The position numbers are program-made. From IMG/VR virus record IMGVR_UViG_2687453582_000002: DNA of 23,484 nt. One strand, given 5' to 3'. Below are positions 1-6,000 of this stretch, piece after piece; within the stretch, counting starts at the first letter, position 1; each line of letters starts with the position of its first letter. Source of the DNA: a virus. Its lineage: Duplodnaviria > Heunggongvirae > Uroviricota > Caudoviricetes.

Positions 1-3000
1 ATGGGATATAAAGTAAAGAAATTCATCATGAGTAGTGGAGAGCGAGGATGCCTGATCCTTGATAAAAAAAGTAATCTACCAACTTACTATCAAAATCTAT
101 TTCTTACTACAGACATAAGAAATAGAGGCGCAACGGCCTCAACGATGGAAATAGTTGCAACTAACTTACTAATTTTCAGTAATTTCTTGGATGGTAGGGG
201 AATTGATATAATTGAGAGAGTTGAACTTAAAAAATATCTCAGCGTTGCAGAAATAGATGATCTGGTAAGATATGCGAAACAAAGATTCGACAGACAAAAA
301 ATCATAAATATAAAATCGACAAATTATAGGTTTATTGCGAAGAGAACCTTTAGTTATAGAATACACGTTTTTTCACGCTACCTTAAGTGGTTATGTGGAT
401 TAGTTCATTCGTCAAAGGGGATTCATGCAAAGTATGAAGTAGACGTATTTATTGAAAGTATCAGAGCACATATTCCAAGAAACAGTTCATTGAATATGAA
501 TGAAATATCTGAAAAATCGTTGAATGAAGAAGAGATCAAAGTGCTTTTCCGTCTATTGGAAATTGGCGGGATTGAAAACCCTTTCCATAAGGAAGTACAG
601 GTCAGGAACAGACTAATATTTACCTTGCTCTTAAATTTAGGTTTAAGGGCTGGAGAGTTGCTCAATCTTAAAATAGATGATTTTGATCTCAGAGACAACA
701 CTTTAAGTGTAGTCAGAAGACATGATTCAAAAGAAGATGGAAGATCTTATCAACCATTAGTAAAGACTGGAGAAAGGGTTATTCCGTTATCTGATGAGTT
801 AGCCCGTGAAATTTTTGATTACATAAGCAATAGCAGAGAAAAAATGACAAAAAGGAAAAAGCATAATTTCTTATTTGTGGCTCATTGCACCGGAAAAAAC
901 GCAGGAGAACCCTTAAGCATTTCAGCTTATGAGAAGGTGATATCAACACTGAAACGAGCAAGTCCAGAGCTATATAATCTTTCAGGCCATAGGTTAAGGC
1001 ACTCTTGGAATTATATGTATTCTAAAGGAATAGAAGGTGCTGAATTAGAATATAATAGAAGGAAAGATTTAAGGAATTATTTAATGGGTTGGTCAAAGGA
1101 GTCAATAATGTGTGATAGATACAACTATAAATATATATCGCAACAAGAGAAGGATGTCGTCCTAAAGGTCTATAAATCAGTAAGTAAAATAATTAGTGGA
1201 GTTTAGTATGGAAAACAAATGTATTGAAAGTGAGCAAATCTTTTTTGCTAAGATGAACAGGTATAGTTTCAAACTGTCAGATAAGAAATGGCAACTGGAT
1301 AAAGAAAACTGCGTATACCCTCATAAAGTTGTAGATAGAATGCCTACAAAAATGAAACTTAGCTACTTAAAAACATTGGCTTACTATGCGTCTGAATATA
1401 GTTCTTTTTATATTCAAAGTATTAACAATCTATTTTATGAGTGGTTTGGTGCGATGACTATCGATACTATTGATGACAAAGCAATATATCAATTGAATGT
1501 TTATTTAGGTTCAGAAAGAAACTACAAACTAAACTTAATTAAGGCTTTCATCATTAAATGGAAAAATCTCAATTACCCTGGGGTAGAAGCGACTGCCATT
1601 AGAATGCTGGAGAAAATAAAAATCATTCCAAACCAAACAGGAGATGCAGTTAAAAGACGAGATCCAAATAAAGGACCTTTAACTGAAGCGGAATTCAATA
1701 ACATCATTAACGCCGTTGGAAAATTTTATCATGAGAAGAAAATTCAATGCTTTTTGTATTGTTATATCCTTTTGCTGGCAATAACAGGAAGAAGGCCATT
1801 ACAATTAATATCTCTAAAAGCTAAAGATCTCATTAAAAATGAGAGAGGGTGCTTTTTGAATGTACCAAAAGTAAAACAAAGAAAATGTTTCAGAAAAGAA
1901 TTTAACATGGTTATGATAGAGCCGTTCTTATATGACAGCTTATCAATGCTAATTAATCAAAATCAGGCGTTTGTTGAAGATAAATTCAGTGTTGGGATTA
2001 GTAACTATAGAGGCGAATTACCAATCTTCATGAATTTAGATAAGATTACGGAAACAAAAAGGATTGAGGATTTTTTATATGATTTAACAACAGATTTTTT
2101 CCATATGAAAAATTCAGTTATGTCAAAACTATTAAAACACTTTCCGTCAAAATTCGATGTTAGGTCAGAAAGGACTAACAGCTATATAGAACTTAATGCT
2201 AGAAGATTCAGATATACGTTAGGAAGTCGACTGGCTAATGAAGGAGCCTCAATTGAGGTGATTGCTAAAGCGTTAGATCATAAATCAGTAAACTCTTCTA
2301 TAATATATATAAAAAATAATCCTGACAACGTTTATGACATCGATAAGAGACTAAGTGCGTTTTTTAACCCCTTATCTAATATACTTATGGGCATAGAGAT
2401 TGAAGAAAACAAGAACTTTTTTATCAAGTTTGTTTCAGATGCATTTTTCTTATTGGAAGATACGAAAGAGGATTTGAAATGTTTAACGTGTAAAAAATTC
2501 AATCCCTGGAGAGCATTATGAACAATATATTTATTTTTGAACCAAGCAATAAAAACAACCCTCTCGATAATGTTATTAAGTTTATCGAGTTTTGTAAGAG
2601 TACTATTTCTAATAATAATTTAACAACTTCATGGGAAAGCAATAAATGGAAAGGTTTATATAGGTTTACTAAGTTTAACTCAAAAAACAACCTAAACAGC
2701 AAGGAGTGCTTAGATGATAGCTTTATTAATTTTGCTAAAGCATATATGTTGCATGTGCATTCATTCAATAAATCTAAGACGAAACACTCAACATTATCAA
2801 TGTTGAAGATTGTCGAATTCGTTTTACTTAAAATCAATATGGAAGCTAATGTAAACTATTGCAACAATTCAATCTATGATGAATGCATAAGGATAGCCTC
2901 TGAAAAGTATTCTAAAGCACATGCATTTGCTATTGGGAAAGAACTTGAGAAATTGAGTTCATTTTTAAATGATAATAGGATGACTAACTCATTTTATTTA

Positions 3001-6000
3001 TTTTGGGTAAATCCAATTAGGTATAGGATTACTCAGTCTTGGACTGGTTATGATTCTTCACTGGAAGGCCATTCTAGATTGCCTGATATCAAATCAGTTA
3101 TTGCGATTGCTGAGATTTTTTCAAAGCGGGATGAACAATTATCGTCAAGAGATATATTTACTACATCTGTGCTTGCTTTACTTATGTGTGCACCGAGTAG
3201 GATATCGGAAATTTTAGCTTTGCCAGCGGATTGTGAAATCACAGAATGTGATGGAAAGGGCATTCAAAGATACGGTTTAAGATTTTTTTCAGCAAAAGGG
3301 TATGAAGGCAATATAAAATGGATTCCAACTTTAATGATACCTGTAGCTAAAAAGGCTATTAGCAGATTAAAAGAATTATCAAGTCAAGCGAGGTTATTGG
3401 CTGCTGAAATTCAAAAGAATTACTCTAATTCAACGAAGGGAACCCTTAAAGAAAATATACCTCCTGATCTCTTTTGGTATGATAGAGAGAAGAAAATCAA
3501 ATATTCTAATGCGCTTTGCTTGTTAACTGAAGGACAGTTAAATCAAAATAAAAAGGAAATGTCAGATAAATTATTCAGACCTACAACGAATTTTTTTAAA
3601 ACTGATATCATTGATTCTGATTATATAAAAGGGTATTTTAATGTTTTTAAAAGACATGGTTATATAAATGAAGATGGTAGCCCATATTTGCTAAGAACAC
3701 ATCAACTAAGGCATCTTCTCAACACATTTGCTCAAATAAATGGTATGGATGAAATGGTATGGATGAATTTAGTATTGCTCGCTGGTCTGGACGTAAGCTT
3801 ATTTCTCAAAATGTTTCTTATGACCACAGATCGCATCTTCAAATGTCTAAAGCAATAAGAGAAAAAAAGTTATCAGTATGTGTTAATGAGCACAGAATAA
3901 AGGATATTCCAGTAGTGGATCTTAATGAGTTTGACTCACTTAGTAGTGGTGCAGTACTTGTATCAAAACATGGCTACTGCAAGCACTCATATGCGTTTAA
4001 GCCGTGTGATAATTATCCAATTAAGAACTCTGGTTTAGATAACGAAACGATTTCAAATATCCACGATAAAATTTTAAAAAGAACACTGTATGATAAAAAT
4101 GATGGGAACATAAATGCTGATAAATGGTATGAATTCCATAAAAAAATAAAAAAAGGAGAATAAATGGCTAAGCATATAAATGGTTATCATGAGAAGAAGA
4201 TTGTAGATGTTATTAACACATGGTCTATAGATGAAAAACTAACCTGGAATGCTTTGTGCGATAGGTTAGTCAGGGTTATTGGGAAAAGACCATCAAGACA
4301 ATCCTTAAGTAGTCATGTAAGGATTGCGGAAAGCTTCAATGTGAAAAAAACCACAATCAAATCTGGTGTAATACACACTGTAAAACCTGCTAATTTAAAA
4401 GTGGCTTCTCAACGAATTAAAAGACTTGAAGCAGAAAATGAAGCTTTGAAGGCATTAAATGAACGCTATTTAGAGCAGTTCAAAGTATGGCTTTATAATG
4501 CTCACCTTAAACAAATAACGATTGAAGAACTTAATAATCCGTTACCTGCAAAATACCTTTAATAAAATTGATAGGTTTTAGCTATTGACATGGTGAAATA
4601 TTATGTTATTTATTTTCTTGTCAGGACGACAAAATTTCACTATTGCAAGGATGCATATTATGGACAAAACAAATATTAACTTAATGGAAAGGTATCTTCT
4701 TCTGCTTGATCGATTCGTTGATAAACTCGCTGAATCAGGTTTCTCAGAGCAACGAATTATCGAACAATCATATCTTTTTTGTGCAGGATTTTATATCAAA
4801 TACCAGAGTGGTATAGAAAAAATGACCTTCTCCAACAGGGAGGTTGTTTTAACCTTTCTGCTACTTTCATATTATAGTCATATAAATAAACTGGATGATG
4901 ATTTGATCAACAAAGAGCGTATGAAGCATGTATGTTCTTCATTGATTAACTTTATAGTCAGTAATGGTAGCCGAACAGAGAAAGTCTATGCTAATGAGAA
5001 AAGGAAATATGAGGCTTCAACTCTAAAAAGAGAATTATCGAAAAAGGATAAAAGGAAAAGATATAGGTTGTAGTGTTTGTATGATTTTCATTAGACTTAC
5101 TTAATCTATAGTCTAAATTTTAATATTAGATTCGTAAATCTATAATTCCATGAATCTAATTAATGCTTAAAAGCATCCTCTAAGATGCTTTTACTGTTAC
5201 CATGCATACATACCCAGAACCTTTAACAAACGATAATAGAGGGGAGTTGTGTATAACAACTCCCTGACCTTACTAAGGTTAGCGATGTTATTCAGCATCA
5301 TTCTGTCAAAGATTTAATTTCTTTGAAAAATACTAATTCTACCCCTTAAGTTAATAACTTCTGCTTGATCGTGTATTTTGGTAAGTTGGAGTACAATTTT
5401 TTGATTGGATCGTCAATAAGAAAAAGCTAGAATCCTTAGAAGGACATAGATTTTCATAGGGTTAAGATATGACGATTGCGAAGGATAGTTCGACTGATGA
5501 AATCATTCATGGAAATGATCTCCGTGGAATGGATGATTTTTACATTAAGACAACGAGTTTTGAATGCCCATACGAGCCTTGTAAAATTAAAGCCACACCT
5601 TGTAGTTTTACTATGAAACATGTTAATCAATCATATTTCAGATATGGCGATAAACATAAGGATGGATGTGGTATTCATGATCCAAGATATAAAAACAATC
5701 ATACTTCAAATGACGAAAGAAAACATAATTCGCCACCTGCTCCGGTTATATCACTTTTAAAAATTGATGTGAAACCAAGAGGTGGTGTTAAAAATGCCAG
5801 AAATATTAAAAATGAAAATCACAAGGATGAAAAAAAAGGTAATGAACATCCTGTATCTTCATCAAGTATTAAGCCAGTCGTTGACTATTACATAAATAAT
5901 AGCAATCATAATGAACAGCTATCAATCCCTCCATATGGCACGCGATCTTATAAAGATACATTTCAACTTATTTTTTACAAAAACAACATACGTTATTACA

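Follow-up and report, generated by a model that had tools for sequence, protein, structure and literature searches.

Positions 1–4562 of the DNA analysed here, a stretch of 23,484 nt (IMG/VR virus record IMGVR_UViG_2687453582_000002; hereafter the window, with negative positions lying upstream of it), very likely hold the ginABCD operon of a GInt, in a copy that has decayed. A GInt is a Genomic Island with three Integrases; the name Tn6571 family is also in use. The window is DNA of Escherichia coli O157:H7 adjoining ssrA (22425–22787, minus strand): its positions 1–6700 are 100% identical to many O157:H7 chromosomes and were matched in 392 of 5,426 complete E. coli genomes, on the chromosome every time. 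A preliminary description of the same DNA had proposed three tandem, translationally coupled tyrosine recombinase genes of the recombinase-in-trio (RIT) or Tn554 type. We find it partly supported, right in kind (a rare multi-recombinase operon) and imprecise on the family, which is that of the four-gene ginABCD operon; the fourth gene had been missed.

Organization of the operon and family assignment

In the window, four tightly packed genes run in one direction from position 1 to 4562 (Table 1), and the window begins, as previously stated, at the first codon (ATG) of gene 1. The list of open reading frames (ORFs) of the plus strand reads 1–1206, 1196/1208–2521, 2518–3858, 3759–4163 and 4164–4562; the third gene, earlier taken as a single ORF, is thus split between two frames, 2518–3858 and 3759–4163, by a frameshift. 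At the ginA/ginB junction a GGAG is followed by the TAG stop (1204–1206) and by ATG 1208; at ginB/ginC a GGAGAG goes with an ATGA overlap (2518–2521); at ginC/ginD an AGGAG goes with TAA (4161–4163) abutting ATG 4164. With these Shine–Dalgarno-like sequences and stop/start overlaps or abutments the junctions look translationally coupled, in agreement with the operon proposed earlier. One of the two overlaps reported then, ATGA at 2518–2521, is present; the other, 1196..1206, is doubtful: GTG 1196 is a possible alternative start of ginB, but the better one is that of RefSeq, ATG 1208, which has GGAG 7 nt upstream and lies one base past the ginA stop. The block was correctly described as AT-rich, its GC content being 0.30–0.35 across positions 1–6500 vs 0.45–0.56 over most of the DNA rightward, and as unrelated to the prophage integrase at ssrA.

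GInts are tripartite (gin operon, cargo, short AT-rich 3′ end) and flanked by imperfect direct repeats of 10–17 nt, attL and attR; gin sits at the 5′ edge, beside attL. In Pseudomonas, both the excision of a GInt as a circle and its site-specific integration need all four gin genes, and ssb is the target of several GInt families (Bardaji 2017, PMC5385486). As references for GinA, GinB and GinC we took the P. stutzeri DSM 4166 fragments printed in the supplement of that paper, and searched them in a database of 12 sequences. Each fragment had its positional counterpart in the window as the best match: GinA with 32% identity over 228 aa (E = 1e-27), GinB as the best partner of both GinB fragments (E = 3e-6 and 5e-4) and GinC with E = 7e-5 and 4e-5 for the GinC fragments. 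GinA and GinB of GInts match phage-integrase catalytic-core profiles, and GinC does so only in part; in the window, genes 1 and 2 match PF00589 and gene 3 does not.

The product of the window's ginD is exactly WP_001052051.1. Additional file 10 of Idola 2023 (PMC10214605) lists this protein as a ginD ortholog, in O157:H7 EC4115, beside an intact ginC of 1632 nt (WP_001059531.1); the gin locus of O157:H7 was therefore already known, being catalogued as a pair of ginC-ginD orthologs. Furthermore, the O157:H7 locus resides between the alpha-amylase pseudogene and smpB, an interval that is among the defence-island hotspots of E. coli with recorded GInts; islands of enterotoxigenic E. coli H10407 in this interval carry the label 'IME__GInt'.

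Scanning one genome per GTDB species with a GinC alignment yielded 79 loci. All four genes were detected in 74 of them, always in one order and on one strand (73 were compact), with ginD 3′ of ginC in 74/74 complete loci. In 33 of the 68 loci with enough upstream sequence, ssb was directly upstream of ginA.

The candidate catalytic residues of GinA are R216, K255, H330-x-x-R333, W364 and Y374. Those of GinB are R196, H358 and Y367, together with a box II in which RxxR replaces HxxR: it reads RRFRY (aa 332–336, nt 2201–2215), which agrees with the Arg noticed earlier in place of the usual His, while the Pseudomonas reference GinB has HRFRH at this position. GinB also matched the NCBIfam model NF041502 ('integrase_1') with E = 1.8e-95 and 320 bits, vs a cut-off of 350. 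GmtY of the gamma-mobile-trio is a poor match to both proteins, the scores of GinA (22.3 bits) and GinB (20.9 bits) being far below its NCBIfam cut-off of 340 bits. The fourth protein, GinD, belongs to a family whose alignment conserves AKH...KLTW...RQ.L..H...RI..LE.E...WQYN; its alignment to the small protein encoded in ssb-adjacent loci, Pseudomonas loci included, is good. Its single-sequence AlphaFold2 model is mostly helical, at a confidence (predicted local distance difference test, pLDDT, of 63) too low to judge the published helix-loop-helix.

GinC and its frameshifted allele

Two perfect copies of ATGGTATGGATGAA lie in ginC, at 3740–3753 and 3754–3767; with one 14-bp copy deleted, the ORF is intact (1632 nt, 543 aa). 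The duplication separates the HxxR box (nt 3700–3714) from the Trp and Tyr residues (nt 3777–3827), and the frameshift that it causes leaves a product without W418 and without the nucleophile Tyr430. A 151-nt probe spanning the duplication was searched in the E. coli genomes. Of the 351 that carry the locus, 298 have no duplication, 252 of them matching at exactly 137/151, and the remaining 53 show full identity to the window. This split indicates that the frameshift is a real, lineage-restricted mutation, and the duplication could serve as a lineage marker. The listed genomes with the duplication are O157:H7 or isolates associated with cattle and meat.

We saw above that the first two proteins match PF00589, as expected of tyrosine recombinases; the third one fails the profile check, an outcome that the preliminary description had named as speaking against it. 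Repaired GinC had zero Pfam matches, PF00589 included, even at E ≤ 10; the NCBIfam search returned nothing useful, and there was no meaningful sequence match in PDB. Its homologs (n = 612) are mostly named 'DNA-binding protein' and have no Pfam domain. The fold and the invariant residues, on the other hand, are those of a tyrosine recombinase. For the AlphaFold2 model made from a 30-sequence alignment (mean pLDDT 76.5), every match listed by Foldseek was a tyrosine recombinase (Cre, XerH, Tn1549 Int, IntI, XerA, XerD and lambda Int), with a probability of 1.0 for the top matches, a best E-value of 7e-5 and modest TM-scores of 0.3–0.5. The candidate residues of intact GinC (R228, K260, H395-x-x-R398, W418 and Y430) are all invariant in the 30-sequence alignment. 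The other alignment comprised 32 family members, at 28–97% identity to E. coli GinC; here R228, K260, R398, W418 and Y430 were present in 32/32 and H395 in 30/32. These members come from Gamma- and Betaproteobacteria as well as from metagenome-assembled genomes (MAGs) labelled Myxococcota, Desulfocapsa and Edaphobacter.

Because of this evidence from fold and motif, we consider the failure in Pfam to be outweighed. Judged by the aligned residues, the catalytic set of the GinC family is complete and Cre-like; the family is probably an active recombinase, understated by the NCBI name 'DNA-binding protein'.

Surroundings of the gin operon in related islands

The left edge of the element is outside the window, where ginA is preceded by a gene of the AlpA family (PF05930, E = 1.2e-18) and one with DUF6387. 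An AlpA gene was directly upstream of ginA in 22 of the 68 loci with enough upstream sequence. AlpA/DUF6387 is also the terminal gene pair of ICEKp258.2, an EARL/ROD21-like island without gin, and the AlpA-type protein SEN1998 is the recombination directionality factor (RDF) of ROD21 (PMC10763509, PMC8844411).

Comparison of related loci revealed a recurrent left discontinuity, situated in the interval from −322 (AlpA stop) to −278. Strains Z30 and 2015C-3107 have this AlpA context with a gin operon that is unrelated; conversely, the same gin operon (95% nt identity) was seen behind AlpA genes that are only ∼77% identical, in the leuX islands of E. coli ZH177/ECO21 and in Brenneria, Xenorhabdus, Klebsiella and Pantoea. 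The right limits of the shared blocks vary: a swap of gin only ends at ∼4604, the block in common with the leuX islands goes as far as 5073, the stop of orf5, and the block shared with Pantoea extends to a conserved inverted repeat followed by GTTAGCCCTTGCT, with variable cargo beyond. This inverted repeat (GAAGCAGCG/CGCTTC) and GTTAGCCCTTGCT form the end of the mobilization module, in O55:H7 DEC5A at 16740–16798 of locus L006, and equivalent inverted-repeat sites are present in loci L011–L014, L016 and L022. Since sequences diverge into different cargo past GTTAGCCCTTGCT, the site resembles an origin of transfer (oriT); by its sequence, the inverted repeat with GTTAGCCCTTGCT looks like a putative oriT.

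By their neighbours on both sides, the 79 loci fall into two groups: orf5 was found in 30 loci and the relaxase in 26, and every locus with the relaxase has orf5; in ssb-adjacent loci both were found in 0/33. Across loci L009–L014 the block from gin to orf5 has ∼92–97% nt identity to the E. coli copy, and such identity across genera indicates its recent intergeneric transfer. These loci come from Brenneria, Xenorhabdus, Enterobacter, Klebsiella oxytoca, an Enterobacteriaceae MAG and Pantoea, and their GinC has 92–97% aa identity to that of E. coli.

A 5.3-kb block, from −278 to the orf5 stop, was considered as a minimal GInt, being 95% identical across genera with flanks at ∼77%. We rejected this as proof, because all the comparisons were made with one query lineage, so that a single replacement event may underlie them, and also because in the Pantoea locus the 95% block reaches as far as the oriT-like end. 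In leuX-type loci (L002, L010 and L014) the ∼100-nt spacer between AlpA and gin holds CAGATTTTGTGAGTTTA, which is like the left junction of the O157 and O55 loci (CAGA on one side, TTTGTAAAGTTTA on the other). Going by sequence likeness, CAGATTTTGTGAGTTTA may be a duplicated recombination site, or its presence may be due to chance. A similarity to AGATTYGTAAA at ∼5128 was also tried as an att copy and was discarded; in AT-rich DNA it is indistinguishable from chance.

The islands of the mutS-ygbA hotspot (L007, L088 and L089) are inserted in the 5′ end of mutS, with an integrase of 485–487 aa at the mutS end. The gin-orf5-relaxase core occupies the middle of these islands, with defence cargo on either side (Hachiman, Gabija-like, ABC-three-component, retron). 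For strain 120899 (L007) the island ends, mapped against K-12, are perfect 26-bp direct repeats beside the 486-aa integrase, and gin begins ∼4.8 kb inside; the other two mutS islands have the same layout.

Cargo genes and decay of the O157:H7 copy

Variable cargo directly after ginD consists, in the window, of orf5, the PE-repeat gene and the BamE paralogue; in relatives, the cargo beyond the relaxase includes ABC-three-component, Gabija-like, retron and His-Xaa-Ser modules. For orf5 there was no significant match in Pfam or PADLOC. The (PE)n repeat of the next protein is encoded by a (GCCAGA)n tract at 6476–6593. The length of this tract differs between strains (the allele of O55:H7 encodes 410 aa, and in many genomes the match is broken into two pieces). 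The PE-repeat gene is common to O55:H7, strain 2015C-3107 and loci of Enterobacter and Pantoea; the second, island-borne BamE gene is conserved together with it in the Enterobacter and Pantoea relatives. In PADLOC, ginD, orf5 and the cargo genes gave weak matches only, to PD-Lambda-4_B (E = 1.5e-7, by the PE-repeat protein) and to AbiEi (0.0026).

Table 1. Features of the gin locus and the adjacent island remnant (window positions)
Feature	Position	Strand	Description
ginA	1..1206	+	401-aa tyrosine recombinase; PF00589, E = 2.4e-18
ginB	1208..2521	+	437-aa tyrosine recombinase; PF00589, E = 2.9e-11
ginC pseudogene	2518..4163	+	RefSeq: frameshifted 'DNA-binding protein'
14-bp tandem duplication in ginC, ATGGTATGGATGAA ×2	3740..3767	+	Direct sequence reading
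ginD	4164..4562	+	132-aa small accessory protein, WP_001052051.1; ATG directly after ginC stop
orf5	4660..5073	+	137-aa conserved hypothetical protein after ginD in the relaxase-linked clade
PE-repeat cargo gene	5469..6677	+	402-aa protein with (PE)n repeat
BamE-domain lipoprotein paralogue (cargo)	6753..7055	−	PF04355, E = 9.4e-7
Island truncation point	7105..7106		Collinearity with O55:H7 DEC5A ends here

The O157:H7 sequence is collinear with that of O55:H7 DEC5A, at 99.5% identity, from ypjA to position 7105, and collinearity resumes at 22421, at ssrA. In O157:H7 the segment 7106–22420 contains an IS30 fragment and IS1203, along with a prophage remnant that bears effector genes. Also located there are late and regulatory phage genes, accessory genes of IS66, the type III secretion effectors espW and espM2, and DUF1076 genes. 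The right side of the O55:H7 island carries hypM, a relaxase of the MobA/VirD2 type (PF03432, E = 1.4e-26), the small gene mobC and the oriT-like site; further on it has an ABC-three-component system, His-Xaa-Ser genes and an integrase adjoining ssrA.

In O157:H7 the right part of the ancestral island has been replaced by a prophage remnant and insertion sequence (IS) elements. The E. coli gin operon, by homology, would once have excised and integrated the island segment carrying it, as the gin operons of Pseudomonas GInts do; for the latter, recombination is proposed to involve 6-nt staggered cuts that would leave short imperfect direct repeats. Given the frameshift in ginC, the replacement of the right side and the fact that each gin gene is essential in Pseudomonas, the O157:H7 copy is predicted to be unable to excise; on this analysis it is probably an immobile remnant. 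The locus also documents how IS elements and a prophage remnant overwrote the ssrA island of the O55:H7-like ancestor. For annotation, the identification clarifies that what RefSeq gives as 'tyrosine-type recombinase/integrase', 'DNA-binding protein (frameshifted)' and 'hypothetical protein' beside the Sp17 region of O157:H7 is a decayed ginABCD operon.

Alternative explanations

Several observations weigh against assigning the locus to the GInts. Against the reference GinB and GinC the match is weak, with scores that come solely from the tiny 12-sequence database. The right end, attR, was not found: the left-junction 17-mer CAGATTTGTAAAGTTTA did not recur (≤3 mismatches) in the O55:H7 or the ZH177 locus; nor was an empty site seen in the 5,426 E. 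coli genomes, where no place covered both halves of a chimeric query made of the AlpA flank and the hypM flank. The gin-orf5-relaxase core is situated mid-island in related E. coli islands that have a separate integrase. Finally, excision and integration were demonstrated for Pseudomonas GInts and for no member of the enterobacterial clade.

Some of these points are shared by another explanation, possible but to our mind rather doubtful, that gin is a built-in or captured module of an integrative mobilizable island of the ROD21/EARL-like kind and not an autonomous GInt. Islands of this kind have a terminal integrase, an AlpA RDF with DUF6387 and a MobA-type relaxase with oriT. The terminal integrase would then set the borders of the island, and gin would have another role, perhaps to move or exchange an internal segment of mobilization genes plus cargo. 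In every E. coli context examined (leuX, ssrA/ypjA, mutS) the series gin-orf5-(hyp)-relaxase-mobC was indeed inside an island with its own integrase, and in strain 120899 it is the mutS island, not gin some 4.8 kb inside it, that is bounded by the 26-bp repeats. The variable defence cargo flanking the core on both sides, the failure to find the empty site between AlpA and hypM, the AlpA/DUF6387 pair at the end of ICEKp258.2 and the role of SEN1998 in ROD21 point in the same direction. However, close family members reside at ssb without AlpA, orf5 or relaxase, as canonical autonomous GInts do. The left breakpoint always falls within the same ∼45 nt, from the AlpA stop to −278, which fits an att-type junction; one AlpA context has unrelated gin operons, and one gin operon is found behind diverged AlpA genes. 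As ICEKp258.2 has AlpA/DUF6387 but no gin, gin appears optional for that backbone; likewise, mutS islands with related integrases exist without gin.

A further, tentative interpretation is that in the enterobacterial clade gin, rather than being a terminal integration module, makes up one end of a core composed of ginABCD, orf5, the MobA-type relaxase, mobC and the oriT-like site. Lying right after the AlpA gene, within defence islands that are integrated at tRNA, tmRNA or mutS and possess a separate integrase, this core would be a mobilizable GInt that is nested inside an integrative mobilizable element or has fused with it, with all three Gin recombinases catalytically competent (R-K-HxxR-W/H-Y); we see it as an unlikely though not a far-fetched arrangement. 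If true, a single island would have two independent recombination systems; in the published accounts, by contrast, GInts are non-mobilizable and GinC is non-catalytic. A gin operon with a relaxase/oriT-like module and a second integrase could matter for the movement of defence islands in Enterobacterales. The remaining novelty is in the relatives, not in the window: the coupling of gin with mobilization and a GinC with the full catalytic set.

The two element types named in the preliminary description fare worse than the GInt assignment. A Tn554-type transposon or a strand-biased circularizing integrative element (SE; intA-tfp-intB-srap) would account for several tyrosine recombinases plus a small accessory gene; a table of Jing et al. 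files the ginABCD transposons Tn6571 and Tn6488 under Tn554, and SEs and GInts have been described as alike in layout (Idola 2023, PMC10214605). Nevertheless, we consider this explanation quite improbable: Tn554 has two recombinases with TnpC, whereas the window has three with a small gene. In SEs the second gene, tfp, has no catalytic motif and the third encodes a large catalytic IntB, and published clustering separates GinC/GinD from Tfp/Srap, the present locus being in the list of ginC-ginD pairs (PMC10214605); gene 2 of the window, for its part, is PF00589-positive, with R...RxxR...H...Y. An RIT element, a compact unit of three recombinases with long flanking inverted repeats, would explain the three neighbouring, overlapping or abutting genes of recombinase fold, and we give it even less credence. 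Long inverted repeats on both sides of the trio were looked for, as had been suggested; in L001:19300–27200 no inverted repeats of the RIT or SE type bracket it, the best pairs being intragenic, 14–30 nt long and 70–93% complementary. Besides, a fourth gene is present in 74/74 loci, cargo follows the operon, the proteins pair with GinA, GinB and GinC, and the locus is catalogued as ginC-ginD.

Least credible of all, to the point of being negligible, is the notion that the three ORFs are fragments of one gene or a chance arrangement. A frameshift does exist, within gene 3; it is internal to that gene and absent from 298 of the 351 genomes, while the three genes specify distinct full-length proteins with catalytic sets of their own and with orthologs across 74 loci in several phyla. 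The preliminary description had named such fragmentation as what would speak against it, and here its view of three separate genes is upheld.

Comparison with known systems

RIT elements have flanking inverted repeats, and have neither a conserved fourth gene nor cargo; the likeness of the window to them is in the three adjacent tyrosine recombinase genes. Tn554 (tnpA-tnpB-tnpC) is an element of Firmicutes, found in Staphylococcus and Enterococcus, with two recombinases. It resembles the gin system in site-specific transposition by tyrosine recombinases with a small accessory protein, and differs from it in the number of recombinases and in the host, Tn554 being set apart here by gene content. 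The resemblance is at a loose superfamily level.

SEs come closer in layout. As in the gin locus, their recombination operon has four genes and is placed to one side of an element with cargo, in Gammaproteobacteria; it codes for two catalytic tyrosine recombinases, a protein of recombinase fold and a small protein. Unlike in GInts, the non-catalytic protein of SEs is second in order; no sequence similarity between SEs and GInts was seen in the published clustering, and SE termini are imperfect inverted repeats of 13–19 bp (PMC10214605), none of which were seen at the window locus.

The EARL/ROD21 islands are comparable with the surrounding island, not with the trio, and this comparison is based on Pfam domains and gene order only. 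The O55:H7 island shares with them a terminal integrase, here at ssrA, a relaxase of the MobA/VirD2 type and, at the far end, AlpA and then DUF6387 outward; however, the described islands are without gin and use a tRNA-Asn site, while gin islands are at ssrA or leuX.

With respect to published GInts, the window shows a number of differences: (i) its gin operon is ∼320 nt downstream of an AlpA/DUF6387 pair, whereas published GInts have gin at the island edge; (ii) its clade is linked to orf5 and a relaxase/oriT-like module, whereas published GInts are putatively non-mobilizable (Idola 2023, PMC10214605); (iii) GinC of the window's family keeps R-K-HxxR-W-Y and is complete, whereas the reference GinC is without the first Arg (Bardaji 2017, PMC5385486) and, according to Idola 2023 (PMC10214605), without the RHRY motif; (iv) its GinB has RxxR rather than HxxR; (v) its ginC is frameshifted and its right side truncated. 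Still, the likeness to GInts extends over the whole operon and beyond it: all four genes recur in identical order, have junctions of the translational-coupling type and are set in AT-rich DNA, with cargo after ginD and with family members at the 3′ end of ssb.

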